Origin: Pseudomonas phage vB_PaeP_TUMS_P10
Length of the DNA stretch: 64,000 nucleotides
Sequence record: OM782452.1
Direction: 5' to 3' (one strand)
In this document: one piece after another, positions 20,201 to 64,000 of the stretch
How the letters are laid out: every line of letters begins with the position of its first letter
How positions within the stretch are numbered: position 1 is the first letter of the stretch
Made by a program: the position numbers and the translations under genes
Notes under the pieces: model-generated
The model's database searches: none
Seen by the model: only the letters and a program-made list of their open reading frames with translations
What the model was told of the DNA's origin: nothing

Positions 20201-21506
20201 GGACCAGGTACTGGGTACTCTGGCTGGTCAGATCGTGGACAAGGTGTCTTCGCATCAGCAGAACGTGGACGTAGTTCGTTCCATGTACGAGCAGTTCCGT
20301 GAGGACTACTCCAACCGCCCGAGCAGCTACATCAAAGTAGGCAAGGACAGCACTGAACCTCACTTGCAGGAACTCTACAACCTGTTGCCCTATGCAACTA
20401 AGCGTGAGATCCGCAATGTGTGGAAGTCGGACAACATGATGATCCCGGCTGACCAACTGAACATGATCATGGGTTACCGTAAGGCATCCGTAACTGGTCC
20501 GTTTGGTTTGGATCCGCAGGAACGTAACGTTGCCCAGCAGGTTCTGGTAACTGTAGCTGAAGCAATCCTGGGTCCGAAGGCTGCACTGCGTCTTGGCCGT
20601 GCTGAAGACGTGATTCAGGAACTGGTACGTGAAGCCAAGGACATTCTGGTTGTGAAGAACATCTTCACTCTGGTGGGCAACATCGTATCGAACATGACGT
20701 TGCTGGCTTGGAGCGGTGTTGGTATTGCCGATGCAGTACGTGCGCATGCAACTGGCATTAAGGGTGCCTTGCAGTATCGGGCAGACAACAAGCGTCTGAT
20801 CCAACTGGTGCAAGCCAAGGAAATTGGGTATGTGCCGGAAGGCGTTGCGTCGATTGACGATGAGATTGTTGTGCTGCGTGATCGCATTGCACGTAACCCC
20901 ATCAAGCCGTTGATTGACGCTGGTCTGATGCCGACCATTGTGGAAGACGTTGAAGCTGATGACAGTCAATACAGCTACAAGTCTTTGCTGCAACAGAAGA
21001 CCGAACGAGTAACCAGTAAGCTTCCGAAACTGGTGCGTGATGCGGCTAAGTTCGTGTACGTGGCTCATGACACGTCCATGTACAAGTTCCTGTCGCAAAC
21101 CACTCAGCTGAGTGACTTGGTTGCCCGTTACACTCTGTACGAGCATCTGATCAACCGCGCTCGTGATCCGCTGAGCAAGGCTGATGCACTGAAGCAAGCA
21201 GAAGAAAGCTTCGTGAATTACGACATCCCATCCCATCGGATGGTCCAGTATCTCAACGACACTGGTTTGTTGATGTTCACCAAGTACTATCTGCGGATTC
21301 AGAAGGTGATTGCACGACTGGTCAAAGAGAAGCCTGCCCGTGGTCTGGCACTGGTAGTGGCCAACCATTTCGTCAGTGGTTTGCAATCTGTGATGGACAG
21401 CAGCTGGATTAACCGGATTGGGCACAACCCATTCCAGAGTGGTCCGTTTGCTTTCCCGAGCAGTCTGAGTGAACTGCCTGCGATCAAAGGTTTGTTCAAC
21501 CTTTAA
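11295..21506 (+). CDS. virion-encapsidated RNA polymerase (N4 gp50-like vRNAP)
   Basis: 3403-aa single ORF. Central region carries T7-like motif B (RKVIKQPLTAMMFGS, ~nt 15715) and motif C (NIHDAHGT, ~nt 16531). AAGGAA RBS. Giant size and position match N4-like vRNAP. Confidence 0.85.
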   Translation: MADFDLDSFLDARLDAEAGTAPAFDPSAFADFGNTFPMKGTQKQFNIYEMAEQKRRNIEESLVGKLGITPGATGTGPINLAASLASGTSRVAGQLVNLPLNFAAQMGQAGVSEEAIQAYNREITGNPLEGDDAILNQIAAGEDGVQQTMRDRLIGVQGLRDAGKAVQDFFDISSIVDTTDRDAMSRDIAERTQQGVALLRESGDQLERGQILDALLSGAAGATQTVAGAVAGTATNPSAVTEYTVENAPQLAAAAVSAPLGVATNVGYAADELREGYREYAEANDGQLPDQEDRLKMGAFAASLAMAEQVGDLSMLRGIRGEAGLLRSTLSSSAREGVTEGYQTYGEAQVRLDDASIEEIVEGAAIGAAVGGSLNIAGRAVRGASGAKSKAEQAITDREAVATARETGDIADLTNIESENYNPAGAVSVLHEQVLKNDTPEVRESVIAQADTIEQELAKQISDIESVQALASEEGVARLVAAREQREAQLEQATPEERTQLEAQIESIRNLEEEAAAYTPELRAQDDAELKDLNQRLKATREAIQRLHTDAAPTAPEVEELVAQAPTSPEAAERVITLTMTNPDSLSNEQIASIVSDESNGLSPEYRTALRSFAQAKEAMDELKGLSGVRTDIEVGGDGFKGIPQYRNAVRMALSNGNIEAATAQVDQLRAFADTRLSKFAAISDAFDKVQGTQDFINIIPNQETGVWEVAPEGMTPRQVQSAKGLRVFAGSQKLRDAVAMEATALARTAESLQALINAGPLTNAVQVAQEQTIAQEQEVAPVAEEVTPVAEPTAQVSEEAVAQEAETVQAEPVPEVETGELTAIREGAEVRGKPLASQDYQDTNLVGAFFQQSPAKQEGDTKKPLASVKDFATAVRTGSAKLAEFAGVESFTGQQQSALKNFMGFQRMAKPLVEANLKQYVSKSGDASRYRFRDYAQFLVNADGSLDENVSTAIAYAAYDWINDAASNLVNSDAGINAILGKDVSAEVSPAAYAALATVGVRQATAAAQLGAKVREVLGLEVLPNAPVNEQARLEASLGEHALHLLVKSGAAKITAISDAQLKNLMGSQEKPNAKVQHYFLTPVSERVDGKLQAGPLARRVREATMGSQSILNKLFGTTPAMIEPSFEPIDFKQRNAKRTQQPISSEQARILDKAAKQAHTLRPEMWQVWGNLSPEALATIAGAADLEGTKVHKANRAGLQAKSDGLVRQIQNFGDFFNRINEVSDLGTEQPLYFDRSVWKPQRVGLTSNLINPQTSKIHRHMLKMEGWESEVKLDSKADLDNFKLRVLESFGKKTEATNTDKVLAKYDATVNTPAIQGGVAALAEILRGDASDTVANESAILAAVAEAGENFFSLDGLVALAQEKIAREDGAASFKTTLLGEVDGVTNGPMLSLLMSGAKGFETLNQGGFFSQTDGFQQFNDFHAEAGNLDLYEGTIKAVLDILGNNPLLSAIEAITGELSTDDGNVSSKGRKVIKQPLTAMMFGSNTKTAVDGMADGFIETIYSKIEDAANANDLDSLRKTINAVNQLMIGTNAQKWPTDMGFEAALDTTFDARQVAALKNSFYQLLGKKVEEALNDTYAEFISRRDVINKTANMAFQMYEAAFQAKREQMLKTADLPRGKDGQPYTDLTREQIEQIRKELKPMEPILHTAFSKASGELDAGMLMAKTRRELNDTPLYRSEVHFAEPLEFLDSDGRKRAVNSMKASGMTTVNEGPGVAPFITATHALDSFISHNALDGASVLNIHDAHGTGLSDMAEAGRRLNEATFKAMLGYSAASEMVDTFERTLAGFNNLMTDPEAAAVMAPMMQKYLESQKATVGQQLEAIRRVAEAADTDKLTMLSEMAAVGQYATEGGSYLVTDADRKAAQDALKQVGKFNEEAEIWAENVDANLEVMASEAKAGKAKPLSSDSVQTLAPATSLNTMDRVIRESNGQLREDLQQVASVMENQNIPLASAKEVLPEDRAAAVVATINESTRSLKSVWGELGQAVTPSEQDLVEFLSSEGVTARNLSQYLEQRTQDGFTKKLLAALSRLTREDLPVIIVTPQTGPDGALGEGVSKARGWYASKGNFDAIYVKSPDFVESGITEEFLVHELLHTVTGRVIQRELDAKAKDPSHNTAASRMVDELEEIRSKAQDFLNANGTLSSKYANAVQDVHELVSWGMTNKGFQEEVLKGLELPAKGRDKGFTAGLRRFISALTGLVFRGENTPSNQNAMGLLISNTAGLFAEAQAMMAKKDTMTLRYEDAVDSVNRMSTKQIFNALASNRDSSVAHQNRLADALDNIVAALHGPMGALRTRVMEGQALTNTDVVIKAMNTNTMPFASEALSSAFVVSDQEAFVLEQVEATIDTALNGNEGLFIRGSLENLWREARDTLSARDFHQGDWTQASQQEKAIAQEKYDFLFKVQASAAGKNSFLARFAGLAIGSEEVFNALGFRSKSTERALAGMTLSQKVMELFRRLLTRLGRLHDKTSPGELANNRLVTLLDRLVDIEAKRRGRFAERKLGALDQVEQAMGNMGESLRNTIEQASQSTFFTNNNSPFIRAAGSLIETTMAGRVDGVLEGISRLRDDAFRKPRGVLMGVLDEMRGVTDLMTAAHSLFKQAKSNEMERKQHIEYTVAQVNASFKDGGEYLTNKDKAALTKVFLRTNMSALLDTYGFDGLRQLLNNDSELRKERSQLETQLLGLKNGAYYLRSVKDLAYNRAIGGNVSPNLMLNTQNIADLIGTKKALSVSKSEAKAAKEVMDLLLPMFTFEYTSHEDKVAAREVLRTEAARGKDNGVEMILKLHKGLQDRSKSFLFEGTERLMIDGYTPDIFDNKIEVLAVDATDLDYFLKRGYTRAGNVQEDKAAGLSAGKVLVSRRGSGQVGLLTGAMSYTGMQAKGSRVERSAVNMLSNNPGTAKNTIGTIRKNIADSVDEMFTTDATYDPRKAQAQRVAPVLDPNGIIVDYRYMMTEHNRDSLLNRDNSMDQVLGTLAGQIVDKVSSHQQNVDVVRSMYEQFREDYSNRPSSYIKVGKDSTEPHLQELYNLLPYATKREIRNVWKSDNMMIPADQLNMIMGYRKASVTGPFGLDPQERNVAQQVLVTVAEAILGPKAALRLGRAEDVIQELVREAKDILVVKNIFTLVGNIVSNMTLLAWSGVGIADAVRAHATGIKGALQYRADNKRLIQLVQAKEIGYVPEGVASIDDEIVVLRDRIARNPIKPLIDAGLMPTIVEDVEADDSQYSYKSLLQQKTERVTSKLPKLVRDAAKFVYVAHDTSMYKFLSQTTQLSDLVARYTLYEHLINRARDPLSKADALKQAEESFVNYDIPSHRMVQYLNDTGLLMFTKYYLRIQKVIARLVKEKPARGLALVVANHFVSGLQSVMDSSWINRIGHNPFQSGPFAFPSSLSELPAIKGLFNL

Positions 21507-25181: not shown

Positions 25182-25919
25182 TCAGCCCGCGTAGTATTCG
25201 CGGAGACGCTGCATTACAAGCTGAGCGTCGTTGTTGATGAAAGTCTCACAGGTTTCCCACATGTCCATGGGGCCACGGATCCTTTCACCGATGGTTTCCT
25301 TGGTGATCATGGTCTGGAAGACATGCTTGAAACCAAGCGACTCTTCCAGTGGCGAAACGGTCAACAGCTTGTTGCCGTCACGGTACGGTTCCAGTTCACG
25401 CAAGGACATCTTCTTGGTACTGATGACCAAGGAGAAGTACGATTCGATGCCGTTGTTCTTCAAGGCGCCTTTCACCGGTACACACGATTCCATCATCATC
25501 CGGGCATCGTTGTAGACCGACTTGGTGTGACCCAAGAAGATCACGTTCGCCGACGAGCGAGCCACGTAATCCTGCATCAGGTTCTTGAAGTACTGCTGGT
25601 AGTTGCCCCACGCCTTCTGGGTGTCCGGGGATCCCAGAACGCATTGGGATTCGTACATGTCCATCAGGTACGTCAGCGTGTCGATGACGATGGTGTGGCC
25701 TTCCAGCTTGCCGTTCTCCAGTGCATCGAAGGCTTCGTACACATGGTCGGGGTGGGTGATGGTGAAGCTCTTGAACTTGTTGCGGAACGGCAACTTCTTG
25801 CCTGCTTCGCAGTTCAGGTAGATAACCCCTTCGGGGTTTTCCAAGTTCTTGAGGCTCAGCGACTTACCGGTAGCGGATTCGCCAGAGATCAAGAACAAGT
25901 TGTCGTTGACTTGAGTCAT
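25182..25919 (-). CDS. P-loop ATPase (replication/recombination-associated)
   Basis: Walker A GESATGKS. AGAGGTG RBS supports the ATG at 25919 (the ORF track uses a GTG at 25925). Confidence 0.55.
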   Translation of the reverse strand: MTQVNDNLFLISGESATGKSLSLKNLENPEGVIYLNCEAGKKLPFRNKFKSFTITHPDHVYEAFDALENGKLEGHTIVIDTLTYLMDMYESQCVLGSPDTQKAWGNYQQYFKNLMQDYVARSSANVIFLGHTKSVYNDARMMMESCVPVKGALKNNGIESYFSLVISTKKMSLRELEPYRDGNKLLTVSPLEESLGFKHVFQTMITKETIGERIRGPMDMWETCETFINNDAQLVMQRLREYYAG

Positions 25920-25933
25920 AGACACCTCTGTAG

Positions 25934-25962
25934 TTAATCGAAAGAGCCGCTGGAAGCGGCCC
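25934..25962 (-). terminator. intrinsic terminator (minus strand)
   Basis: GCCGC-loop-GCGGC hairpin followed by CUCUUUCGAUU on the minus strand. Confidence 0.45.
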
Positions 25963-25967
25963 TATCT

Positions 25968-28106
25968 TCAAACCCCGAGCTTCTTCTGCACCGTGATGAG
26001 AACGGTCGTCAGCAGTTCGGTTTCGTCCAGGCTGTCCTGCATCTTGGCGTTCAAACCAAGTACCCGATTCTTGATGGTGTCGTAGCCGAAGCCGTTCTCC
26101 ACCAGGATCATGGCGAAGCGAAGGAGCATGTTGTTGCGGTTGCCGTCGCCGGAGTTGTTGATCACCCAGCGCTCCAACCGATCCATATCGCTCTGGTCCT
26201 GGAGACGGCTACGACGTTCTTCATCCTTGCTGGTTCGCGGGATGAAAGGCAGTGCGTCATAGAGTTCGCCGTCCAGTACCTCGACAGTGCCTTCGTGGGT
26301 CAACCACTTCTTGCAGCGGTGGCTGCATTGGGGATCGACTTCGAAGGGCAAGGAATCGACCAAGGCGTTGTAGAACTCCTTGTATTCCTTGGCATCGAAC
26401 TTCAGGTGATAGTTCAACGGAAGCACGATGCGGAAGTGCGGATCACTGTCAGTGTGCGACTTGGTGGTGTAGAGGATCGCCTTGTAGCCGTCGAGGAACT
26501 GCTTGGCCAATTCCAGCTTGCAGGTGCCATCGATATCGAGGACTACCATGTTGAAGCCAGGAATCGCATTCTCCTCGTTGCGGTAACCGCCAGCGAGGTG
26601 GTGTGCAATCCAGTGAAGGCCAGGCATGCCGACCAGCTTCGCCATGTTTTCCCAGGTCACCTTGTCGTTGTAATACCCTTCCGTCATTTCACGGGAGTAG
26701 GACACGATAAGGTCGTTACCCTTGATATCAGTGGCTTTCAGCGATTCGCCTCGGATGAAGTCTACGTTGTCACGAATCGACTTCTTGATGATCACGTTGT
26801 TCTTGTAGCCCCATGCGGTGGCCAACAGGATCAACTCTTCCCGCTGACTCTTGGAACCCCGGAAGAACGGGAGATCCTCGATCAGATCGGTGTAGTTCAT
26901 CTCGCGATTGGTGTTGGCCAGGTACTTCGCCAACTTGACGTAGGTACGGTCCCGACTCAGTAGCATCTTGAATGCTTCGCCAGACTCTTCTGCCAGCTTA
27001 ACCGCTGCATAGAAGTGGTCTTGTGTCAGGACCGGACTGTCGTCAACGAAGGCATACGCACCAGCCAACTTGAGTGCCTTGAAGTAACGGTGAGTGATCT
27101 CCGCCTTTCTGGTTTCCTCGTGTTCGCCGAGTTCGGCTGCTTCAGCTTCGCACTTCAGCTTGTACTCAATGATGAGTAGTGCTGTGTCCTTGTCCATTGT
27201 CAGAACCTTCCGCATGTTGGAAGGATCCGCAAGGGTTTCCAACTTTTCGCTGAGGTCGTCGATGAACTGGACGGTGTTGTTGCTGGTCATGAGGTCGTAA
27301 ACCTCATCCGGGGTCATGGCAACCTTCTTCTGGTCGCCACCGAGTCCGAAGAAGGACCGGCGAGCGTAACCAGTTTCCAACATGGAGTTGAACTCCTCTT
27401 CCGTCTTGCTGCCGTTGAGCAGCTTGGTCGGAGTACCGAACAACATCATGTTGGTAGGCGTCTTGCCTCGGATTTCCTCGCCTCGCACGTTGTCCTGCGT
27501 GTTCTTCACCAGCTTTTGCTTGATGGCGCCCACGTCGTAGAGTTCGAGGAAGGTGTTCAACACTTCGATCTGACCCGTAAGGTTCGAGCCGATTTCGTCG
27601 ATCACCAGGTTCACTGCACCGGCATTTGCCATGAGCAGTTTGTGCCGCATCTGCTTCACAGCAGGCGGCGTACCGGAGTCAAAGGTATAAACCAGTGGCC
27701 CCAGTTGGTTGAACTCCTTCTGGACTCGCAGGAGTTCTTCGCTTTCGTCACAGTCCTTACGACTGGACCGTTCGAAAGCCAGCTTCTGAAGGTTGACTTC
27801 AGCCGCCGCATCGAAGCTTTCCATGAAGCGCTCACGGAAAGGACCAGTGATCTGTTCCTCCATGATGTTCGTGGAAAAGCCTTTACCCGCGCCCGAAGGC
27901 ATCAGGTTGATGGCGTACATGTTGACAGGGATTACCCCACGATCATGCGTCTTGATAGAGCAACGCATTTGAGCGGCCATCATGGAGAAGTGGAACCCTA
28001 CGAGAACCCGGAAGAAGAGGTGATTCTTCGACTGGGTTTTCTCGCAGAGAATCTCGACGATGCGCTCGGATGTGGGGTGATGCTTCATCTGATCCAATGA
28101 AAGCAT
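25968..28106 (-). CDS. DNA primase-like protein (prim-pol/primase C-terminal-like, N4 gp43-like position)
   Basis: 712 aa. MVVLDIDG acidic motif and the ILYTTKSHTDSDPHFRIVLPL region resemble primase-polymerase domains. AGGAG RBS. Confidence 0.45.
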   Translation of the reverse strand: MLSLDQMKHHPTSERIVEILCEKTQSKNHLFFRVLVGFHFSMMAAQMRCSIKTHDRGVIPVNMYAINLMPSGAGKGFSTNIMEEQITGPFRERFMESFDAAAEVNLQKLAFERSSRKDCDESEELLRVQKEFNQLGPLVYTFDSGTPPAVKQMRHKLLMANAGAVNLVIDEIGSNLTGQIEVLNTFLELYDVGAIKQKLVKNTQDNVRGEEIRGKTPTNMMLFGTPTKLLNGSKTEEEFNSMLETGYARRSFFGLGGDQKKVAMTPDEVYDLMTSNNTVQFIDDLSEKLETLADPSNMRKVLTMDKDTALLIIEYKLKCEAEAAELGEHEETRKAEITHRYFKALKLAGAYAFVDDSPVLTQDHFYAAVKLAEESGEAFKMLLSRDRTYVKLAKYLANTNREMNYTDLIEDLPFFRGSKSQREELILLATAWGYKNNVIIKKSIRDNVDFIRGESLKATDIKGNDLIVSYSREMTEGYYNDKVTWENMAKLVGMPGLHWIAHHLAGGYRNEENAIPGFNMVVLDIDGTCKLELAKQFLDGYKAILYTTKSHTDSDPHFRIVLPLNYHLKFDAKEYKEFYNALVDSLPFEVDPQCSHRCKKWLTHEGTVEVLDGELYDALPFIPRTSKDEERRSRLQDQSDMDRLERWVINNSGDGNRNNMLLRFAMILVENGFGYDTIKNRVLGLNAKMQDSLDETELLTTVLITVQKKLGV

Positions 28107-29135: not shown

Positions 29136-29534
29136 TTAACCCTCGGGGTTGTCTTCCAACCAGCGGTTCAGGGAATCCCTGGCTTCCCTTACGTCCTGGT
29201 GCATCGACTTGCCGCCGCTGCGCTGGCCCAGGTTGAGCAGCTTCTTGCGTGCATGGTCGATGGCACCGGAGTTGTCGCAGGTGATCGGGAACAGGGTGTT
29301 CAGCCGGTACACGTCAAGCCAGGTCCACTCCTTGGGGATATCCCGACGGTAGCGGTTCTTCGGATCCACCTTGGGCTTGGTGTCCTTGGCTGCCGCTTTC
29401 ACGTATTCCTTGGGCAAGCCTACGATGGACACTCCGTAGACCGATCCCATGGAGGACATCTTGTAGAGTTCCCGGCAGAGGCCGCAGGTGGCTGTGGTGC
29501 TGTGATGGTTGTTGCACAGGGGGTGTTTGGTCAT
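29136..29534 (-). CDS. hypothetical protein (Cys/His-rich N-terminus)
   Basis: 132 aa with N-terminal CNNHHSTTATCGLC. Confidence 0.4.
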   Translation of the reverse strand: MTKHPLCNNHHSTTATCGLCRELYKMSSMGSVYGVSIVGLPKEYVKAAAKDTKPKVDPKNRYRRDIPKEWTWLDVYRLNTLFPITCDNSGAIDHARKKLLNLGQRSGGKSMHQDVREARDSLNRWLEDNPEG

Positions 29535-29956
29535 AGGGACTCCTTCTGTTTGTTGAGGTGGAAGATGGCTAGCTTAGCAGCAGCCATGTAGCGACGGGCT
29601 TGCCGGCTGTCCAGGGACATACCGGAAGCCAGCAGGTCTGTGCTCAGTTGAGGCTCCTTCAGGAGGCTGAACAGGCGCATGGCCGATAACGGCTTCTGGG
29701 AGCCTTCTGCGAGCGAAGCGATGCCCACGAGGACATCCTCTACCACCGGATCAACAAACATGTTGTCGAGGCCCTGGAGGCGCTTTGCATGAGGGTTCTG
29801 TACCCAACGGGTACGAGGGCCGCCGATGGCGTTCTTGTTCAAGCCATGGAAGCGAATGGTATCTGTGCTTGCCTTACCCAGGGAAGCCTTGAGGTTGGGC
29901 ATGCTGTCGATGGGGAAATCGATGACGGGAATGTCGGCTGCGGTCAGCTTTTTCAT
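29531..29956 (-). CDS. hypothetical protein
   Basis: 141-aa first gene of the leftward block, AGAGG RBS. Confidence 0.45.
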   Translation of the reverse strand: MKKLTAADIPVIDFPIDSMPNLKASLGKASTDTIRFHGLNKNAIGGPRTRWVQNPHAKRLQGLDNMFVDPVVEDVLVGIASLAEGSQKPLSAMRLFSLLKEPQLSTDLLASGMSLDSRQARRYMAAAKLAIFHLNKQKESL

Positions 29957-30010
29957 GGGTAAAACCTCTGGTTAAAAAATGATCACGAAACGGTCTTATA
30001 TATAAAGGGG

Positions 30011-30307
30011 TCCACCCTCCCCCTCTTGAATTTACATTCAAGCCCCCGGAGGGGGCCGGGAGTCGGGTGGACCCTGGGAAGGTCTCTCCCCTGACCTTCT
30101 CCCCCTACCCTGAGACGGGGTAGTGTCAAGGGGGATCGGCGCCAGCCGCACGCCCCCGCAGACACGGATCCCGTCGAGGGGTAGGGATATTGATTTACCT
30201 ATACCCCTATACCCTACCGGAGTCCGTGTCTCCCACTCGGGCTTCGCTGCGCTCACCGCTCGGGGGACACTACCCCGGTAGGGTATAGGGGGGAGGAGGG
30301 GGAGAGG
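30011..30307. repeat. GC-rich nested inverted-repeat region between divergent gene blocks
   Basis: Nested inverted-repeat pairs: 30011-30025/30288-30307 (C-rich/G-rich); 30104-30128/30266-30291 (12-bp perfect core cggggtagtgtc/gacactaccccg); 30158-30170/30219-30233; inner 30176-30188/30201-30220, which also carries a tataccc direct repeat. Local hairpins at 30076-30097 and 30104-30124. Confidence 0.7.
30042..30056 (+). promoter_or_regulatory. GCCCCC-GGA-GGGGGC mini-hairpin (6-bp stem, GGA loop)
   Basis: Perfect palindrome with the same GGA loop as the 54426 and 55463 palindromes. Confidence 0.3.
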
Positions 30308-30338: not shown

Positions 30339-31613
30339 ATGGTAGACGTATGTAATCTGAACGGTACTGAGTGTGGTACTGGTTCTTGGAAAGGCCCGAA
30401 ACCGGGTGACCCGAACATGAACAATCTACTCCTGACGGCTACTCCGGCCTTCGGGGGTATCGATATCAACTGGACATGGCCTACGCTTAACCCAGCTGCG
30501 GTCAGTCAAACTATCCTCTGGAGAAGTATCACTCCGAATTTCAACGTAGCTACACGAGTAGCGGTTGTTCAGGGTAACTTCTACTTTGACAGGGTAGATG
30601 TCGAGATCAACTTGGATACCAGGTACTACTACTGGATTCAGATGCTCTCTATCAACGGTACTGAGGGTGAAGTCATCGGTCCGGCGAGTGCAACTGCACG
30701 ACCGCTCATTGGACAGATGATGGATATCCTTTCTGGTCAAATTGATGCTGGTGCTCTTGCACAGAACCTTCGTACTGAGATCGATCAGATCCAACTGAAC
30801 AAGTTGGGGATCACTCAGGAAGAACTTCTGCGTGCCCAGAATGACCAAGGTCTTGCTGTTCGCATCTCTGAGCTTGGTGCAAAGACTGACGATGCACTGG
30901 CACTTCTCCAAGAAGAAGTACGGATTCGTACTGATGCTGATGGTGCTCTGGTACACACGGTTAACACCATGTATGCCGACTTCAACGGGAACATTGCAGC
31001 CATCCAAACCGAGCAACAGGCTCTTGCTACCCAGGTCAGTTCACTGGCTTCGTCGGTAACGACACTGAACTCTACTGTGAACGGCAACTCTGCCTCCGGG
31101 CAGATTGGTTTGGTGACCAAGGTTACCCAGCAGGAAGGGAAGATGGCTGTCATGGAGTCTCAGTACTTCGTGAAGCTCCAGGCAGGCAATCTGGTTGGTG
31201 GTTTCGGTCTGTACAACCAGGGACAGACTATCGAGGCTGGTTTCGATGTGGATAGGTTCTGGGTTGGCCGGGCCAACGTTAAACGGAAGCCATTTATCAT
31301 CGATAACAACATCGTCTACATTGACGAGGGTGCCATCAACAAACTCACCTTCGACAAGTTGAGGGCACAGGATGGAAGTCTTATCGTTCAGAACGGTAAG
31401 ATTCAGGCTAAGTACCTTGAAGCAGACCAGATTGACGTTAGCAACATCCAATCCAAGAACTGGGTGTCGGAACGTCAAGGTTGGAGGTTCTGGGACAACG
31501 GTACTTACGAGCTTAACGGTACTGCCACTTCTGGCCGTACAGTCATCAAAGGCGGAGCTACACGAGTCTATGATGCTGCTGGTGTTCTCCGCGTAATCAT
31601 GGGGGTTTGGTAA
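30339..31613 (+). CDS. tail fiber protein
   Basis: 424 aa. N-terminal fibronectin-III-like region. Central coiled segment. C-terminal ...[18 protein letters not shown] resembles phage tail-fiber C-terminal domains. AGGAGG RBS. Confidence 0.55.
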
Positions 31614-37465: not shown

Positions 37466-38045
37466 ATACCTGGTCGAAGGGATCCCACTCGGTTCCGATG
37501 GGACCACCCTGCACCTGCTGGAGGTTGGCAGGGATCACCGACTGGTTCTTGAAGGGTTCCCAGGCATCTTCCTCGTTACGGGTCAGTTGACCGGTCAGTT
37601 GGAGCTTGGTGATGTCTTCGTCGGTTAGCGAGTCAGTCCAAGCCATACCAGAGATAGCAGTCTTGTAGGCATGCTCCGAGTGATGCATATGCAAACGCTT
37701 CCGTCGACGAAAACTGTTGAGCGCTGCTTCGATGGTGGGCCAAGCCTTTCGACCGCCGTTCTCGCTCACCCAGAACGCCTCGCAATGCTGCTTCAAGTAG
37801 GCCAGAGTGGCTTTCTTGTCGAAGTCACATTGCAACTCACAACCACCAACGCGAGCAGCGTCCCTCTGCTTCACAAACCAGCAACCAGTAGGGGTTCGCA
37901 GGAAACCTACGAACTTCTGTAGCTGGAGATGGTGGTTGTACTTGTTGGTGCCGATCTGGACGATGTGATTGACCACCTTGTAGTAGATGGGCATGGACGA
38001 GATGTTCGTGATGATCTCAAACGATTTCTTCTTGCTGCGAGACAT
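37464..38045 (-). CDS. hypothetical protein
   Basis: 193 aa, GGAGG RBS. Confidence 0.5.
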   Translation of the reverse strand: MSRSKKKSFEIITNISSMPIYYKVVNHIVQIGTNKYNHHLQLQKFVGFLRTPTGCWFVKQRDAARVGGCELQCDFDKKATLAYLKQHCEAFWVSENGGRKAWPTIEAALNSFRRRKRLHMHHSEHAYKTAISGMAWTDSLTDEDITKLQLTGQLTRNEEDAWEPFKNQSVIPANLQQVQGGPIGTEWDPFDQV

Positions 38046-38262
38046 AGTAGTCCTCCATGGCTTGGAAGTTGTTGCAGAAACCCTCCACGATCTCAGCGGA
38101 CAGGTCCGCAGGGAAGTAGTGAATGAGGGCTTCTGCTTTGAGAATAGAATCGCCTTGGCACAGGGCGGATACCTCGATCCCTTCCTGTTTCATGGCTTCA
38201 AAGAAAACACCTAACCGTTCTACGGCATCGGTGTTGAATACAACGGTGTACGACTGTTTCAT
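38017..38262 (-). CDS. hypothetical protein
   Basis: 81 aa, GGAG RBS. Confidence 0.45.
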   Translation of the reverse strand: MKQSYTVVFNTDAVERLGVFFEAMKQEGIEVSALCQGDSILKAEALIHYFPADLSAEIVEGFCNNFQAMEDYYVSQQEEIV

Positions 38263-46785: not shown

Positions 46786-47322
46786 TTAATCCTCCGACAG
46801 GAACAGGTTGGAGGTAACCCTTTTCAGCATGGTTTCGTAGTGGGGTTGATAGGCGCCAAGACTGTCTCCAGCTGCCTGGAAGCTCAGACCTTCCATTGGA
46901 ATTTCCAAAGCTTCATAGACGCTGGAGATGTTCTTTCGTAAACCATCCGGGATGCACTTCAGGTAGTCCCGGAAGTCGTCAGACTTGTTCAGGACGTGGC
47001 TGATGTACATACCAACTTGGGTTTGCTCATCCACAAGGATGGGATCCCACTGGTTTAGCAGAGCCTCGTACTCCGGAAGCAACTGCTTGGAAGCTCGCGG
47101 AACTACCTCCGAGGAACGAAGGTTTGTCTTGACTCCCGGAACCGCCAACAACCGTGCGCGGACGCGCACGCAGAGAATTGAATCACCGCGAATAGCAGCA
47201 TCTCTCTGCAACAGCTGTAGCAACTGGTTGTGGTAGACCCTCTCCGGTTTCTCGTACAAGCCCCGGAGAATGGCCGTCTTCAGGAGTGATTTGAACCGGA
47301 TCTGATTGGCCCTGCTCATCAC
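46786..47322 (-). CDS. hypothetical protein
   Basis: 178-aa ORF. Confidence 0.45.
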   Translation of the reverse strand: MMSRANQIRFKSLLKTAILRGLYEKPERVYHNQLLQLLQRDAAIRGDSILCVRVRARLLAVPGVKTNLRSSEVVPRASKQLLPEYEALLNQWDPILVDEQTQVGMYISHVLNKSDDFRDYLKCIPDGLRKNISSVYEALEIPMEGLSFQAAGDSLGAYQPHYETMLKRVTSNLFLSED

Positions 47323-54143: not shown

Positions 54144-54362
54144 TTACTTGGTTTGGTTGAGTTTCTGGACTTCTTCGTAGATCCCGTACAGGACAAACCA
54201 GAGTCCGAAGGAGGCACCTACAGCGAGGGCGCCACCCAGTGCGAACAGCAGGCCGAAGATTTCACCTCCCAGCTGATTGCCGACAATGGCAGCGATGATC
54301 ACCATCACAATGCCGATCACCGCAGCGGAACGATCCAAAAACAGAAGGTAGGATTTGCGCAT
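54144..54362 (-). CDS. small membrane protein
   Basis: 72 aa with 2 TM helices and an AGGAG RBS. Confidence 0.45.
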   Translation of the reverse strand: MRKSYLLFLDRSAAVIGIVMVIIAAIVGNQLGGEIFGLLFALGGALAVGASFGLWFVLYGIYEEVQKLNQTK

Positions 54363-54425
54363 ATCTCTTTGCTCCTAAAAAAGAAAAAGAAAACTATCTA
54401 ATCGAAATGAATTAAGCAGCATGAA

Positions 54426-54442
54426 AGCGTTCGGAGAACGCT
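54426..54442 (+). promoter_or_regulatory. AGCGTTC-GGA-GAACGCT perfect palindrome (copy 1), N4-type hairpin-promoter-like
   Basis: 7-bp stem with a 3-nt GGA loop. The 15-nt core GCGTTCGGAGAACGC is identical to the copy at 55464-55478. Lies 1 nt past the stop of gene 54444-54629. Confidence 0.35.
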
Positions 54443-54443
54443 A

Positions 54444-54629
54444 TTAAGGTATAACGGATTGAAAATCCATCTTAATAAACCTGTAACGGGCATCGGCATA
54501 GTCTTTTCCGCTTAAACCAGGTAATTCTATTTCAGCCAATGCACGGAATAACTCTGTGTAGGTGTAAGTCCTCCCCTTCATTCTTTCATGTATCATCTTA
54601 ATTGCTGCATCTGACACCATGTGAATCAA
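54444..54629 (-). CDS. hypothetical small protein (AT-rich cassette)
   Basis: 61-aa ORF. Region GC is about 40% against about 55% elsewhere. Confidence 0.35.
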   Translation of the reverse strand: MIHMVSDAAIKMIHERMKGRTYTYTELFRALAEIELPGLSGKDYADARYRFIKMDFQSVIP

Positions 54630-54822
54630 CCTCTGCGTTGAAGATGGAGTCCAAGTCCAAAGCTAAATGAACCTTCTCCATGGTTTCCGCTCCAGGCAAC
54701 TCCTTGAAAAAGAAGTCTGTACTGTCAAAGAAGTGCCAGGAATCACGATCAACAACACCCACTAAGGCTAAGCGGGCTTTCAACTGTTGGGTTATTACGA
54801 GATTACTGTCTTGCATAAGCAA
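54598..54822 (-). CDS. hypothetical small protein (AT-rich cassette)
   Basis: 74-aa ORF overlapping its neighbours. Confidence 0.3.
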   Translation of the reverse strand: MLMQDSNLVITQQLKARLALVGVVDRDSWHFFDSTDFFFKELPGAETMEKVHLALDLDSIFNAEVDSHGVRCSN

Positions 54823-54991
54823 TCTCCTCTGCTGCCTCCATGAAACTACCGTTTACAGTACGGCCAAGTTCACCCATAGCACCTATCACGTAACCCCATT
54901 TATCTAGTATCTTTTCCTTGAAATACTTAGAAGACAGTTCATCAAGGTGGAGATACAAGATAGCCTTACCTAGTTCCTCGTTCATGATCAA
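54803..54991 (-). CDS. hypothetical small protein (AT-rich cassette)
   Basis: 62-aa ORF. Confidence 0.3.
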   Translation of the reverse strand: MIMNEELGKAILYLHLDELSSKYFKEKILDKWGYVIGAMGELGRTVNGSFMEAAEEIAYARQ

Positions 54992-55236
54992 ACCTTCGTA
55001 TAAAATTCCCGTTCGGCCCTTCGCAGTATACGAACGGTTTTAGGTAGTTGTTTGAGGATGTTGTCCGATACTCCAACGAAGTAAGACACACCACCCCAGT
55101 CACCCTCCTTGGCATGCTTATCCATCAACAAGCCAGAGTAGTGCCACTCGACTGATACACGAACCAACTTAAGACCAGTTACTGCTTCCATCAAATTGCT
55201 CCCATTAACTTTTGTTGGTGATAGTGCTCCAGCCAA
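54988..55236 (-). CDS. hypothetical small protein (AT-rich cassette)
   Basis: 82-aa ORF. Confidence 0.3.
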   Translation of the reverse strand: MAGALSPTKVNGSNLMEAVTGLKLVRVSVEWHYSGLLMDKHAKEGDWGGVSYFVGVSDNILKQLPKTVRILRRAEREFYTKV

Positions 55237-55385
55237 CCACCTAGAAACCTAGGGTGGCGAACTCCCGGTAGGTTTTTTCGGATAATTTCTAAATATGCAT
55301 GCTGCATAAAAGTGTGTGGCTTTAGACTGTCTATCCCAGACTCACTCTCTAACAATAAAATTAAAGCTTCTTGCTCCGGAACCAC
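55191..55385 (-). CDS. hypothetical small protein (AT-rich cassette)
   Basis: AAGGAGG sits 8 nt before a GTG at 55385. The ORF-track start at 55412 is a TTG with no RBS. Confidence 0.3.
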   Translation of the reverse strand: MVPEQEALILLLESESGIDSLKPHTFMQHAYLEIIRKNLPGVRHPRFLGGWLEHYHQQKLMGAI

Positions 55386-55410: not shown

Positions 55411-55443
55411 AAAAAAAGGATGCCTTCCCCTTTTCAGGGGAAG
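55411..55443 (-). terminator. terminator-like hairpin with U7 (minus strand)
   Basis: CTTCCCC-loop-GGGGAAG hairpin, then GCAUCC, then U7 on the minus strand. Confidence 0.45.
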
Positions 55444-55462
55444 ACAAGATCCAACTCAATGT

Positions 55463-55479
55463 AGCGTTCGGAGAACGCC
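55463..55479 (+). promoter_or_regulatory. AGCGTTC-GGA-GAACGCC palindrome (copy 2)
   Basis: Identical 15-nt core to 54428-54442. Lies 9 nt past the stop of the RNAP II large-subunit gene. Confidence 0.35.
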
Positions 55480-55486
55480 CTATCAG

Positions 55487-56731
55487 TTAAGACAGGGCAT
55501 ACTCACTATCACGGATGAGTTCAGACAGGTTGTGACAGGCACCTTCATACTGCACGTAGCTACCGGTGATCTGGTGGAAGATGTCATTGAGGATGTTACT
55601 GTCAGCCATCTCGGCGAAGATGTTGATGTAGTGCTGACGCATCTCGTTGCAGTAGTTGGGGTGGCACTTGAACTCATCGTGTACCGTCACCAGAGGGAAC
55701 GGCTTGTGGGCCAGCATGCTGACGCACAGATCCTTCAGTGCCTCCAGGTGATCGGTCTCCATGGCTTGCACAGAGTGCGTGTTAACGAAGGGTAGGATGA
55801 CAGCATCCACCATGTTGGTACGGTTGTAGAGGTCAATGTAGATCTTCACCTTCTCATCCTTGGTTTCAACCAGATCCACATCGTACAGAACGACACGACG
55901 CATCAGTTCATCACTGATGGTTTCGTAAGCGAACTCGGTTACCACGGGATCGTAGTTGCAGCGACGATGCATGGAACGCAGAACGTAAGCATCGATACTG
56001 TGGATGATGTTGGCAGCATTCTTCACGCTGCGTTCTTCACCGCAGACCACCTTGTAGGCGTATTCGAAGGTAGCACCGTCCATCTCATCGACTTCGATGC
56101 GGGTTTCCTTCATGGATACCGACTTGACCCGAGCATGGTAGTTGTCGGGCAGTACCCACTCATGCACCTCTTGGTAAGCCTGGTGGCTGTGAATCAGATC
56201 GGACAGCATCTCGTTCGGAATCGGGCACACTGCCTGGATGCCTTCGTAGAAAGCTTCCAGTTCAGGGGTTTCTTCACCGAACAGCTTCTTCGGCTCAGCC
56301 TTCGAACCATAGAGATGGGTCATGGTGGCCTTCTTGATATCCGAACGCTTGATATCACCTACCGAAGCACCCATAGCAGTGGATGCAGCGGTGGTAACCA
56401 AGCTGTAAGCATCCTGACGGAAGCCAGTGTTGACCAGATTGGTAGCACGAGCACCGTCAATGCAACCGCCAAGGGCAGACATGATCTGCATGCCCGAGCA
56501 GCAAGCATCCAAGCCAACCAAGTGACCAGAGGGAATGCCCTTCTGTGCTTCACGGATGGCTTGAACAGCTTTGTAGTACTGAGGTGCGGTCTTCTCTTCG
56601 CACTCCAGTTCTTCAAGCTCGTCGAAGTGATCCATTACCCACTGGATACGTTGCTCGAACAGGAGCTTGTCATGGCCGAACTGGTTTGCTGCATCAATGC
56701 ACAGATATTCGAATCCGGTGTAACGCTTCAT
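55487..56731 (-). CDS. T7-like RNA polymerase large subunit (N4 RNAP II gp16-like)
   Basis: Motif A-like LDACCSGMQ. Motif B-like KKATMTHLYGSK. Motif C-like VTVHDEF. GGAG RBS before the ATG at 56731. Confidence 0.75.
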   Translation of the reverse strand: MKRYTGFEYLCIDAANQFGHDKLLFEQRIQWVMDHFDELEELECEEKTAPQYYKAVQAIREAQKGIPSGHLVGLDACCSGMQIMSALGGCIDGARATNLVNTGFRQDAYSLVTTAASTAMGASVGDIKRSDIKKATMTHLYGSKAEPKKLFGEETPELEAFYEGIQAVCPIPNEMLSDLIHSHQAYQEVHEWVLPDNYHARVKSVSMKETRIEVDEMDGATFEYAYKVVCGEERSVKNAANIIHSIDAYVLRSMHRRCNYDPVVTEFAYETISDELMRRVVLYDVDLVETKDEKVKIYIDLYNRTNMVDAVILPFVNTHSVQAMETDHLEALKDLCVSMLAHKPFPLVTVHDEFKCHPNYCNEMRQHYINIFAEMADSNILNDIFHQITGSYVQYEGACHNLSELIRDSEYALS

Positions 56732-56810: not shown

Positions 56811-57134
56811 TTACTCGGCTTGCATGTTGGCGATGTTCTCGATGGTCAGCGTCTTCATCAGACGGACCTCCTTCGGAACCGAATGCCATACATCCGGCGC
56901 ACCGATGGTCGGCGGATCAACGAACGCATGGTCGAAGGTGACTGCGTTGTCCTTCTTCTTGTCCAGGAAGCCCCAGAACCAGCGCTTGGCTTGCAGATCG
57001 AAGTTCCAGATGCCTTCCAGTTCGGGATTGCTTTCCAGGAACTTGGAGATCTTGCCGTCCAGGATCAGCTTGCACTCCATCTGGCCGCTTTCGTTGGTGA
57101 AGAAGATCAGGTCGCCGTTTTCGTAGTTGCTCAT
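56811..57134 (-). CDS. hypothetical protein between the two RNAP II subunit genes
   Basis: 107 aa, GAGGA RBS, ATGA overlap with the upstream gene. Confidence 0.45.
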   Translation of the reverse strand: MSNYENGDLIFFTNESGQMECKLILDGKISKFLESNPELEGIWNFDLQAKRWFWGFLDKKKDNAVTFDHAFVDPPTIGAPDVWHSVPKEVRLMKTLTIENIANMQAE

Positions 57135-58066
57135 TTGGTAATCCTCAGATGTTGGGGTACGCCAGTGACCTCTTCCTTGTTGTAGAGGTCGATCATGGCT
57201 TTCTTGTAGGACGCACCTTGGGTCGATATGTGATAACCCTGTGCGTACAACCGTCCACGCTTGTCTACCTTGTGCAGCAGGTAGAACTTGTTGCCTTGTT
57301 GCACCATGAGCTTGTACATCTCATGGCTTTCAGTCTTGAACCGCATCCAATCATCCTGTTGATCTCTGTTCTCCAGGCGCTTGTTCGGTTCTTCCTCGAT
57401 GGTGCTGAGGAATTCAGTGTTAAGACACAACTCAACACTGTTCACCAGGTTCAGAACATCCAGACAGATGTCTCCACCATGGTGATTGTCATTCAGGATC
57501 AGACTCTCAGCCTCACAAGTGAGACGAAGCTTCTGCTTGTTGCTGGTCAAGGTGGCAGGAGCACAAACCATGGGTGGTAAGTACTGCGATCTCTCAACGA
57601 AGCGCATCAGATCTTCAGGTAGCTCGATGTTGGACACAACCTTCCAGCTACCGAAGCGTTCATTCTGCTCCAAGTTGTACAGATCTAGCTCACAGAGCAC
57701 CGCAACCATCTCAGCGATGGTTTTGATGCTGTCAGCCTTGTCATCAAAGCCAAGTACATGAGCCAGTTTCGCAGTGAAGCTGCTAAACAACTCAGGAACC
57801 TGACAGTACAGCGATGCAACTGCTACCTCAGTGGTGATGTGACCCAGGTCAAGGTTACGAACTGTCTCCATTCGGAGGTTCTTGGACTCATAACCGTGGT
57901 CCGTGTTGGCGTACTCTTCCAGAAGAGCAACACCAGCAGACAGAACCTCAGTCCAGTCCTCATCTTGTTGGAGAAACTTACGCAGATACCCGTCAATGTG
58001 CGCCCGTGCAAAGCGGTACTCATTGGCGCGTTGCATATCCTCCGGGAGCATGTGAGTTGGGTGCAT
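57131..58066 (-). CDS. T7-like RNA polymerase N-terminal subunit (N4 RNAP II gp15-like)
   Basis: NKFYLLHKVDKRGRLYAQGYHISTQG aligns to T7 RNAP NKFANHKAIWFPYNMDWRGRVYAVSMFNPQG. 311 aa. Confidence 0.65.
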   Translation of the reverse strand: MHPTHMLPEDMQRANEYRFARAHIDGYLRKFLQQDEDWTEVLSAGVALLEEYANTDHGYESKNLRMETVRNLDLGHITTEVAVASLYCQVPELFSSFTAKLAHVLGFDDKADSIKTIAEMVAVLCELDLYNLEQNERFGSWKVVSNIELPEDLMRFVERSQYLPPMVCAPATLTSNKQKLRLTCEAESLILNDNHHGGDICLDVLNLVNSVELCLNTEFLSTIEEEPNKRLENRDQQDDWMRFKTESHEMYKLMVQQGNKFYLLHKVDKRGRLYAQGYHISTQGASYKKAMIDLYNKEEVTGVPQHLRITK

Positions 58067-59657: not shown

Positions 59658-59958
59658 TTACAGGTCGAGCGCTCGCTCTTCCTCGCTGCGGGTGACACCC
59701 AGCTTGATGATCAGCCGGCTGACCAGCTTCTTGCAGCGCTCGGCGTAAGCGGTTTCGCTCAGCGGCTTGCCCTTGTCGTCCACGGTCAGGAACTCTTGCA
59801 GCTGCATGTGCAGTGCATCGTCCGCACGCAGGCCGAGGCTTACCAGACGAACGTCCTTGCCGTCACGGGTCGGGAAGTGGAAGTTCAGGTAGGCCGAAGC
59901 GCCCTTGTTATCGGTGGCTTGGGTGTTGCGAGCTTGGTTCTTCTTGACGAGTGCCATG
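59658..59958 (-). CDS. hypothetical protein
   Basis: GGAG sits 7 nt before the ATG at 59958; 99 aa. Confidence 0.45.
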
Positions 59959-60084
59959 GTATTTCTCCAGATAGTCATGTGATTGAATGTCGGCGATTGT
60001 TGCCATTCCACAGGCGTAGCCTGCTCTTGATCTTGCCTTTCAAGACCGTAGGTCTGGGTAACCCAAATGAGAATCGTTCAGGAT

Positions 60085-63195: not shown

Positions 63196-63584
63196 GGTAG
63201 ATACCTATAGAGGACTATGAAGTAATGATCAGGCATGAAGCCATACCAACTGCGTAGCAGAAGTGGGTGGGAATAGTGATGGAGTATCAGGTGTATATCG
63301 TATTGAATGTGAGGGTATGGAAGAATGTAGGTGTGGGAACCTTGCAGCTAGTGTGCAGACTCATTGCAGTACACAGTCACTCAAACCTCTCACCATTTTC
63401 CCTATAAGCAGATTTAAGAAGAGGGAAAGGTTACTTCCTACAACCAACTGTCCAAAGGGAGAAGAGAGAACGGCAGAGGAGTATCAGGAAGAAGGGAGTA
63501 GTGTGTGCTCTTGATCTTGATGTGTGCTCTATGTGTGCTTGAAAAGGTAAGCCCCACTCCAGTGAAGGAGTGAGGCAGAGAGGA
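63196..63584. promoter_or_regulatory. 390-bp noncoding region with direct repeats and hairpins (likely promoter/regulatory region of the leftward early block)
   Basis: No ORF of 60 aa or more. GGAGTATCAGG occurs twice (63283, 63479). TGTGTGCT occurs three times (63515-63540). Hairpin CACTCC-n6-GGAGTG at ~63556-63573. Confidence 0.4.
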
Positions 63585-63854: not shown

Positions 63855-64000
63855 GAGGAATACTCCAGAGTAGTAGAAGGTAGGTGGTTCGGACGATCAT
63901 CCACACCAAGGCCGAAGGCCAGCAGAGGTGAGCAAGCGCGGAAAACTCAATCTGGGAACACCACCGGGGGGGAGTACCGGATTTGGGGATGCCGTTACTG

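Follow-up and report, generated by a model that had tools for sequence, protein, structure and literature searches.

GGA-loop DNA hairpins of a KPP21-like Pseudomonas phage as probable counterparts of mapped LUZ7 promoters

Palindromes with a GGA loop and the genes around them

We analysed short palindromes with a GGA loop, considered here as candidate DNA hairpin promoters, in a 64,000-nt stretch (hereafter, the window) of Pseudomonas phage vB_PaeP_TUMS_P10 (OM782452.1). Judged by nucleotide similarity, this N4-like Pseudomonas phage is a KPP21-like Luzseptimavirus (species Luzseptimavirus KPP21): a 4-kb segment around the hairpins is 97–98% identical to Ka3, Ka4, PJNP053, PA152, AM.P2 and KPP21, and approx. 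90% identical to LUZ7. [quoted passage not shown] The local gene map, set by tblastn with LUZ7 proteins, is given in Table 1 and includes both subunits of the phage RNA polymerase II (RNAPII).

The initial annotation had listed three perfect palindromes with a GGA loop, all of which were recovered: 54426–54442 (A-GCGTTC-GGA-GAACGC-T; 7 bp counting the outer A:T pair), 55463–55479 (A-GCGTTC-GGA-GAACGC-C) and 30042–30056 (GCCCCC-GGA-GGGGGC; 6-bp stem). The sole correction concerns the second, which is paired over 55464–55478 (6 bp), with the outer A and C left unpaired. A fourth GGA-loop hairpin, GCCGCT-GGA-AGCGGC at 25946–25960, was absent from that list. Both GCGTTC copies do lie close behind stop codons, namely 1 nt from that of the orf28-like gene (54444–54446) and 8 nt from that of the RNAPII large-subunit gene (55487–55489).

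For a chance test, we counted perfect hairpins whose 3-nt loop is carried by 6 or more base pairs, both in the window and in 300 dinucleotide shuffles of it. The window contains 39 such hairpins vs. 17.9 ± 4.0 in the shuffles. GGA is the commonest loop, found four times vs. 0.28 expected, a number reached in 0/300 shuffles; when any loop triplet was allowed, some triplet occurred at least four times in 3/300. All four hairpins have GGA on the plus strand and none of the perfect hairpins counted in the window has TCC there, which makes the class strand-specific. A template C is located exactly 14 nt away in all four perfect GGA hairpins vs. one of the seven imperfect ones. The DNA fold of 54426–54442 has a free energy of −6.6 kcal/mol (z = −3.3). 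No convincing additional promoter emerged from a relaxed scan for imperfect GGA hairpins in the window; a candidate at 51246 with a template C at 14 nt was rejected, as it lies inside an ATPase gene and has a mismatch.

Table 1. Candidate promoters, terminators and genes in the window (RPM, reads per million; TSS, transcription start site; ORF, open reading frame)
Feature	Position	Strand	Basis or remark
PE8-type hairpin promoter (putative)	54426–54442	−	would drive the orf29-like operon; match 54446–54420 to LUZ7 PE8, 27/27 (early, 1111 RPM)
Inferred start, G	54420	−	14 nt from loop centre 54434; last base of the PE8 50-mer
PE7-type hairpin promoter (putative)	55464–55478	−	GCGTTC-GGA-GAACGC on template; match 55506–55457 to LUZ7 PE7, 47/50 (early, 197 RPM)
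Inferred start, G	55457	−	14 nt from loop centre 55471
PM2-type hairpin promoter (putative)	30042–30056	−	would drive the operon from orf60 to the primase and Sak4 genes; match 30078–30035 to LUZ7 PM2, 44/44 (middle, validated by primer extension)
Inferred middle-stage start, G	30035	−	14 nt from loop centre 30049
PM3-type hairpin promoter (putative), also T41 terminator as RNA	25946–25960	−	between primase and Sak4-like genes; match 25988–25939 to LUZ7 PM3, 50/50 (middle, 11,259 RPM); inferred start 25939
Compound palindrome around the PM2 hairpin, 67 nt	30008–30074	−	outer 10-bp stem GGGUCCACCC/GGGUGGACCC
Intrinsic terminator, LUZ7 T12 orthologue	55411–55446	−	11-bp stem, 4-nt loop, U7
LUZ7 PM1 orthologue, middle promoter	47154–47169	−	GTGCGC-GTCC-GCGCAC, 4-nt loop; equivalent TSS 47146
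PE1 orthologue, far-left early hairpin promoter	63910–63920	−	template GGCC-GAA-GGCC
PE3 orthologue, early hairpin promoter	63250–63260	−	template CTGC-GTA-GCAG
PE4 and PE5 orthologues, tandem early promoters upstream of the Drc gene	60011–60055	−	50-mer BLAST
PE4 orthologue	60043–60055	−	AGACC-GTA-GGTCT
PE5 orthologue	60011–60023	−	CAGGC-GTA-GCCTG
Drc gene (single-stranded DNA-binding cofactor of RNAPII)	59658–59957	−	100% aa identity to LUZ7 gp14
RNAPII small subunit (N4 gp15-like)	57131–58066	−	98.7% identity to LUZ7 gp20; annotation of relatives
RNAPII large subunit (N4 gp16-like)	55487–56731	−	95.4% identity to LUZ7 gp22
orf29-like	54144–54362	−	tblastn, LUZ7 proteins
Tail fibre	30339–31613	+	tblastn, LUZ7 proteins
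orf60-like	29531–29956	−	tblastn, LUZ7 proteins
Primase	25968–28106	−	tblastn, LUZ7 proteins
Sak4-like	25188–25919	−	tblastn, LUZ7 proteins
Virion RNA polymerase (3403 aa)	11295–21506	+	ORF; N4 virion RNA polymerase PDB chains, E = 9e-58

Counterparts in LUZ7 and in other relatives

In LUZ7, 5′-triphosphate-enriched transcription starts and 3′ ends were mapped genome-wide by ONT-cappable-seq (Putzeys et al., 2022; PMC9163698). We took the starts with their 50-nt upstream sequences (Table S2), the termination sites and the transcription units from the preprint tables (bioRxiv 10.1101/2022.03.18.484859) and searched the window by BLAST with the 50-mers, the last base of each being the TSS. The four hairpins correspond to PE7, PE8, PM2 and PM3, which start at LUZ7 positions 8259, 9543, 35273 and 39375, respectively (Table S2 of the preprint). 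No difference from LUZ7 was seen in hairpin, loop or initiation region (27/27 to 50/50 matches), and the 3/50 mismatches of the PE7 match all lie outside the hairpin. Each of the four inferred starts is a minus-strand G exactly 14 nt from the loop centre. The flanking genes (RNAPII large subunit, orf29, orf60, primase and Sak4), the orientation of the hairpins to them and the associated terminators T12, T37 and T41 are likewise the same in both phages. What differs is the species, and the small-ORF cassette between the two GCGTTC hairpins has been largely replaced here (28–51% aa identity).

The proposal of the initial annotation that its three palindromes are promoter hairpins is supported by their identity (47/50 in one case) to the regions upstream of the LUZ7 starts PE8, PE7 and PM2. 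Its proposal of the plus strand as template, with leftward transcription into minus-strand genes, agrees with full-length LUZ7 reads that cover the genes downstream, i.e., orf23–30 from PE7, orf29–33 from PE8 and orf60–64 from PM2 (transcription-unit table of the preprint). Early promoters of LUZ7 are defined by a conserved loop of 3 nt on a stem of 4 bp or longer, with transcription starting at a G 13–14 nt from the hairpin centre (Putzeys et al., 2022), and both 54426–54442 (7-bp stem) and 55464–55478 (6-bp stem) show these features with an RNA G at 14 nt. In turn, the middle class, with hairpins approx. 15 bp upstream of a G start that have a loop of 3–4 nt on a GC-rich stem of 6 bp or more (Putzeys et al., 2022), accommodates 30042–30056 and 25946–25960, but in stem length, loop and spacing also the two "early" GCGTTC hairpins.

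A lack of conservation in relatives, named in the initial annotation as a refuting outcome, was not observed: the hairpins recur there, and changes in their stems are compensated. In the gap after the RNAPII large-subunit gene, the Litunavirus phages YH6, Pae575P-3 and PASB7 have GCGTCT-TCC-AGACGC in place of GCGTTC-TCC-GAACGC, i.e., two compensated base-pair swaps, followed by a terminator hairpin and T-run of different sequence. YH6 carries AGCGTAC-TCC-GTACGCT before its orf29 orthologue, with one base pair flipped relative to 54426–54442, GCCCCT-TCC-AGGGGC before its orf60 orthologue, where the closing pair is compensated, and GGGTGCC-TCC-GGCACCC between the primase and Sak4 genes, where the stem is almost wholly different. 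Luzseptimavirus and Litunavirus thus covary at all four orthologous loci with the TCC/GGA loop fixed, and in a set of 11 such hairpins the loop never varies, while double changes occur in all six stem pairs. When IMG/VR was scanned with a conserved 16-mer from the end of the RNAPII gene, 45 loci were retrieved, mostly by chance, with only known N4-like Pseudomonas phages being relevant.

More distant phages show a related arrangement. Presley possesses CATGTGC-TAC-GCACATG in its far-left region, and the first gaps behind its RNAPII genes hold AAGGCAC-TCC-GTGCCTT and GGGAAC-TCC-GTTCCC (hairpins at 1181, 10174 and 12687). 98PfluR60PP has CTGCAC-TCC-GTGCAG after the RNAPII gene (4484); in Nepra, the hairpins that precede the RNAPII genes have ATA loops, and ACGCAC-TCC-GTGCGT follows these genes (743, 1107, 5785 and 7051). 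C-GGA-G-type hairpins after the RNAPII genes were seen in Luzseptimavirus, Litunavirus, Presleyvirus, Littlefixvirus and Cbunavirus. We also observed that far-left hairpins in five Schitoviridae genera have TAC, TTC or ATA nontemplate loops, and that perfect TCC-loop hairpins occupy the first intergenic gaps past the RNAPII large-subunit gene; in YH6, hairpins of these two kinds lie at 4803, 5062, 11505, 11746, 14540, 37983 and 42089. No such TCC-loop hairpin was detected in the N4 genome after gp16.

Taken together, we consider it highly probable (roughly 0.9) that the GGA hairpins are promoters, and very probably they are DNA hairpin promoters of the N4-type three-polymerase system in the form mapped in LUZ7. 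By sequence comparison, they are orthologues of published, experimentally mapped LUZ7 promoters, and in that sense the finding is already known. Our literature search for N4-like middle promoters with hairpins returned only the 2022 LUZ7 paper, and nothing on GGA hairpin elements was found in a terminator-sourcing paper (PMC10204088) or in a 2026 N4 structure paper (PMC13434306). The gain for this genome is one of annotation transferred from an experimentally mapped sister species, comprising four hairpin promoters with predicted starts, another five promoters of the early or middle class and the equivalents of three terminators. More generally, it appears that true hairpin promoters of single-subunit phage RNA polymerases are recoverable by a sequence-only reading.

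Alternative explanations and the polymerase involved

Several observations weigh against the promoter reading. The functional evidence is carried over from LUZ7, and in LUZ7 itself PE7 (197 RPM) and PE8 (1111 RPM) are weak beside PE1 (46,374 RPM). In the nearest-neighbour DNA model, 30042–30056 does not fold better than shuffles of the GC-rich sequence around it (z = −0.7); this kind of fold cannot tell template from nontemplate strand, since the GNA mini-hairpin bonus is missing from the model. The hairpins used for covariation were picked for being perfect, so that their 100% pairing is partly by construction. Finally, polymerase assignment in LUZ7 is based solely on time of first detection, and the literature searched contained no in vitro transcription from GGA hairpins.

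The hairpins could instead act mainly as RNA, as terminators or processing sites at gene ends. In agreement with this, all of them lie 1–8 nt after a stop codon or in an intergenic gap, T-rich tracts follow several of the YH6 TCC-loop hairpins, and the PM3 hairpin coincides with LUZ7 T41, a predicted intrinsic terminator of 54–68% efficiency with its 3′ end 1 nt before the PM3 start. Yet, LUZ7 has no listed termination site at the PE7, PE8 or PM2 hairpins, so that the 3′-end check proposed in the initial annotation leaves its promoter claim standing, and the LUZ7 starts come from a library enriched for 5′ triphosphates. A terminator scan called only a separate hairpin plus U7 and none of the GGA hairpins, Rfam yielded no match (nothing was found in the whole window), and a strand-specific GNA loop is a feature of DNA rather than RNA. 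The combination expected of an intrinsic terminator, a GC-rich stem with a U-run and mapped 3′ ends, was found only at 55411–55446 (T12) and 25946–25960 (T41). We regard a mainly RNA-level role as highly unlikely. That the palindromes have no function and arose by chance is effectively refuted: 6-bp palindromes do arise by chance, about 18 per shuffled window, but the excess of GGA loops reported above is confined to one strand and all four hairpins are intergenic, they match mapped LUZ7 promoters exactly, their stems show compensatory changes in another genus, and the PE8 hairpin has been kept at the edge of an otherwise diverged cassette.

If the hairpins are promoters, the best-characterized model for them is N4. 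The promoters of the N4 virion RNA polymerase (vRNAP) are hairpins extruded by supercoiling, with a 5′-G-R-A-3′ template loop and a C:G closing pair; the enzyme makes specific contacts with −11R, −10G, −8G and +1C, and initiation is measured from the loop (PMC4496689). We read P1–P3 from the N4 genome as GTTGC-TTC-GCAAC, AAGAAGC-TCC-GCTTCTT and AAGCTGC-TCC-GCAGCTT, each with GC-TYC-GC on the nontemplate strand and a G at exactly +11. The hairpins of this phage share with these the position on the template strand, the 3-nt 5′-G-R-A-3′ loop (GGA as in P2 and P3), a stem of 5–7 bp, a T-rich spacer and a G start, and the three initially reported hairpins also share the C:G closing pair, which is T:A at 25946–25960. 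They differ in spacing, the start being 11 nt from the loop centre in N4 and 14 nt here, in the −8G (core GC-GGA-GC) of N4, a contact of the specificity loop at the stem position second from the hairpin loop, which is replaced by T (GCGTTC) or C (GCCCCC), and in the GG with which N4 transcripts begin. N4 has only three such promoters, located upstream of or at the RNAPII genes, whereas the GGA hairpins described here are found past these genes and far into the middle region. The initial annotation expected starts about 11 nt from the loops; this distance has to be replaced by the 14 nt of the orthologous mapped starts, and the base 11 nt from the loop centre of 54426–54442, at 54423, would yield an RNA C. 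As promoters, the GGA hairpins work like those of N4 without following all N4 sequence rules.

An exceptionally stable DNA mini-hairpin is formed by GNA triloops alone, and the KD of N4 mini-vRNAP for GCGGAGC is 2 nM (PMC13037366). The template C-GGA-G at 54426–54442, 55464–55478 and 30042–30056 resembles the d(GCGNAGC) mini-hairpin (Hirao and colleagues; PMC13037366), in which the GNA triloop forms a sheared G:A pair on a C:G closing pair; the T:A closure sets 25946–25960 apart from it as well. With such a sheared triloop the two strands of a palindrome are not equivalent, and a strand asymmetry is predicted for d(GCGTTCGGAGAACGC) vs. its complement. In the mechanism that we propose, each inverted repeat would extrude as a cruciform, a step that we infer by analogy with N4, and its plus (template) strand hairpin would be capped by the 5′-GGA-3′ triloop, which in three of the four cases would be closed by C:G to give the very stable "C-GNA-G" mini-hairpin. 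A single-subunit RNA polymerase of the phage could then bind the hairpin and start with GTP on the template C lying 5′ of the loop centre at a distance of 14 nt, with transcription proceeding leftward. From the early stage on, the PE8 and PE7 equivalents would start transcription anew directly behind the RNAPII genes, and the PM2 and PM3 equivalents would serve as middle-stage promoters for replication-gene operons.

Which polymerase reads the GGA class is a separate matter. The LUZ7 authors assigned the PE sites to vRNAP and the PM sites to RNAPII by time of first detection (PMC9163698). This phage does encode the 3403-aa vRNAP reported in the initial annotation, whose ORF matches N4 vRNAP structures (Table 1). 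We sought the promoter-recognition residues of mini-vRNAP (W129, R119, K114, D901 and R904) in it; the full-length phmmer alignment covers only N4 residues 1146–1708 and 1935–2099, so the −11 element and the specificity loop fall outside it, and the central vRNAP fragment had no match in PDB at 1e-5. Drc, in turn, binds RNAPII and single-stranded DNA, and the paper describing it maps no promoter (PMC7145618). We give about even odds to the published split, with vRNAP at PE7 and PE8 and RNAPII-Drc at PM2 and PM3. Under this split, the initial assignment of 30042–30056 to vRNAP fails, its PM2 equivalent being a middle-stage site attributed to RNAPII by the LUZ7 authors. For the GCGTTC hairpins the vRNAP assignment is favoured by their early detection in LUZ7, at 5 min, but not by their architecture, which groups them with the middle promoters; the caveat in the initial annotation that they might be RNAPII-related sites was apt in this respect.

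It is possible, though less likely than the published split, that all GGA-loop hairpins form one RNAPII-Drc promoter class, in which PE7 and PE8 would be the first middle promoters, firing first owing to their location 8–10 kb from the genome end that enters the cell first. PE7, PE8 and PM2–PM4 all have a TCC nontemplate loop, a stem of 6–7 bp and an outer stem GC...GC followed by T, as opposed to a TAC/TTC loop and a stem of 4–5 bp in PE1, PE3, PE4 and PE5; further, the start is 14 nt from the loop centre vs. 12–13 nt in the far-left early promoters, and the transcripts start with G plus a non-G base vs. GG. The 1-nt spacing difference lies within nanopore start-site error, which is why we rejected a start distance of 13 vs. 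14 nt as a class divider on its own. PE7 and PE8 are located immediately downstream of the RNAPII genes, and TAC/ATA loops before those genes and TCC loops after them recur in Litunavirus, Presleyvirus, Littlefixvirus and Cbunavirus; this split in several genera favours a distinct class, and possibly RNAPII use. Genome entry of the N4 type, which is stepwise and transcription-dependent (PMC3715699), could explain the timing. Against a common RNAPII-Drc class stand the detection of PE7 and PE8 at 5 min and their classification as early by the LUZ7 authors, the non-hairpin "satellite" start approx. 95 nt downstream of PE8 (PE9), as in the early PE1 and PE5, and GGA being the canonical loop of the N4 vRNAP promoters P2 and P3. 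Moreover, the RNAPII promoters of N4 are not hairpins (PMC4496689). The N4 middle promoters, which require gp2 and gp1, resemble those of LUZ7 type in their orthologous replication genes, heterodimeric polymerase and single-stranded DNA-binding cofactor, yet consist of AT-rich motifs with a T start and no hairpin, as opposed to GC-rich GGA-loop hairpins with a G start, and the cofactor is gp2 in N4 and Drc in LUZ7-type phages.

The opposite view, that all the hairpins, including 30042–30056, are vRNAP promoters, as read in the initial annotation, and the "middle" timing reflects late DNA entry only, seems rather unlikely to us. The template GGA with its C:G closing pair is the core of N4 P2/P3, the GGA-loop hairpins are homogeneous as a class, and RNAPII use of PM2–PM4 was inferred from timing in the LUZ7 paper. 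However, PM2 and PM3 were first detected at the middle stage and lie 35–39 kb from the left end (in LUZ7, the PE7/PE8 equivalents lie 8.2–9.5 kb from it and are early, the 30042–30056 equivalent 35 kb from it and middle), N4 injects only about four vRNAP molecules and is presumed to have its vRNAP promoters at the left end only (PMC4496689), and the N4 determinants −8G and 11-nt spacing are missing here.

The wider interest lies in this question, as identical architectures have been labelled "early" or "middle" by timing alone, and in the finding that several genera have kept GGA-loop hairpins behind their RNAPII genes. An answer would define the promoter specificity of RNAPII-Drc, a minimal T7-like polymerase, which could serve as an orthogonal expression system in Pseudomonas. 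A more speculative reading, less likely than the published split, is that the GGA-loop hairpins form a single family-wide class, distinct from the GTA/GAA far-left promoters and read by one polymerase, of which RNAPII with its cofactor is the most interesting candidate. If so, a C-GGA-G mini-hairpin, located in the gaps that come first behind the RNAPII genes, would be the RNAPII promoter that has long been elusive in Schitoviridae other than N4.

Individual loci and far-left early promoters

At the PE8-type locus, the predicted 5′ untranslated region (UTR) has 58 nt from 54420 to the orf29-like ATG at 54362. An additional GNA-loop palindrome, GGATT-GAA-AATCC with a T:A closing pair, occurs 28 nt upstream of the hairpin (54456–54468), in the 3′ end of the orf28-like gene; this part is not conserved with LUZ7 and the palindrome is probably due to chance. 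The small-ORF cassette of approx. 940 bp (54446–55383) sits between the identical GCGTTC hairpins. Nucleotide homology to LUZ7 stops at 55383 and resumes at 54446, and the small ORFs in between, with 28–51% aa identity to those of LUZ7, have no nucleotide homology. As homology resumes exactly 4 nt before the 54426–54442 hairpin, the promoter hairpins appear to mark a mosaic boundary. In YH6, a gene block is likewise flanked by two identical copies of AGCGTAC-TCC-GTACGCT (11746 and 14540).

Downstream of the PE7-type hairpin, the terminator scan and RNA fold place a hairpin at 55446–55421 with a T-run extending to 55411 on the minus strand. The initial annotation was right about the presence of this hairpin plus U7, but took it as a reason why the neighbouring GGA hairpin might instead be a terminator; it is the separate, weak terminator T12, whose 50-mer matches 47/47 (equivalent termination site 55415) and whose efficiency in LUZ7 is 6–20% (termination-site table of the preprint).

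The compound palindrome around the PM2 hairpin folds as RNA at −46.5 kcal/mol (z = −3.7). On its 3′ side it extends to the T37 termination site of LUZ7, equivalent to 30004 in the window (T37 match 49/50). Within it we noticed a second hairpin, CTTGAAT-TTAC-ATTCAAG at 30025–30042, whose last loop base is the predicted start 30035 and which is not obviously conserved in YH6. The orf60-like 5′ UTR (29957–30003; TTATATATAAGAC..TTTCGTGATCATTTTTTAACCAG) is almost invariant between Luzseptimavirus and Litunavirus (YH6 ~38010–38073), unlike the sequence upstream of the promoter hairpin, which has diverged and contains an indel.

At the PM3-type locus, the PM3 and T41 50-mers each match the window 50/50. 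In LUZ7, where PM3 is the strongest middle promoter, transcripts ending at T41 stop 1 nt short of the PM3 TSS (bioRxiv 10.1101/2022.03.18.484859), and it thus seems that one hairpin ends upstream transcripts and starts new ones; RNA cleavage, too, would leave a 3′ end directly next to a 5′ end.

The 50-mer search also located the remaining LUZ7 early promoters, PE1–PE6 and PE9, together with PM1; the predicted far-left starts fall at about 63902, 63242, 60037 and 60004. Three of the four far-left early hairpins have a template GTA loop with a pyrimidine at its centre; N4 vRNAP needs a purine there (−11 A/G), which implies that loop recognition by a LUZ7-like vRNAP must differ. The promoter-recognition segments of the N4 vRNAP and of the vRNAP encoded by this phage do not align by sequence.

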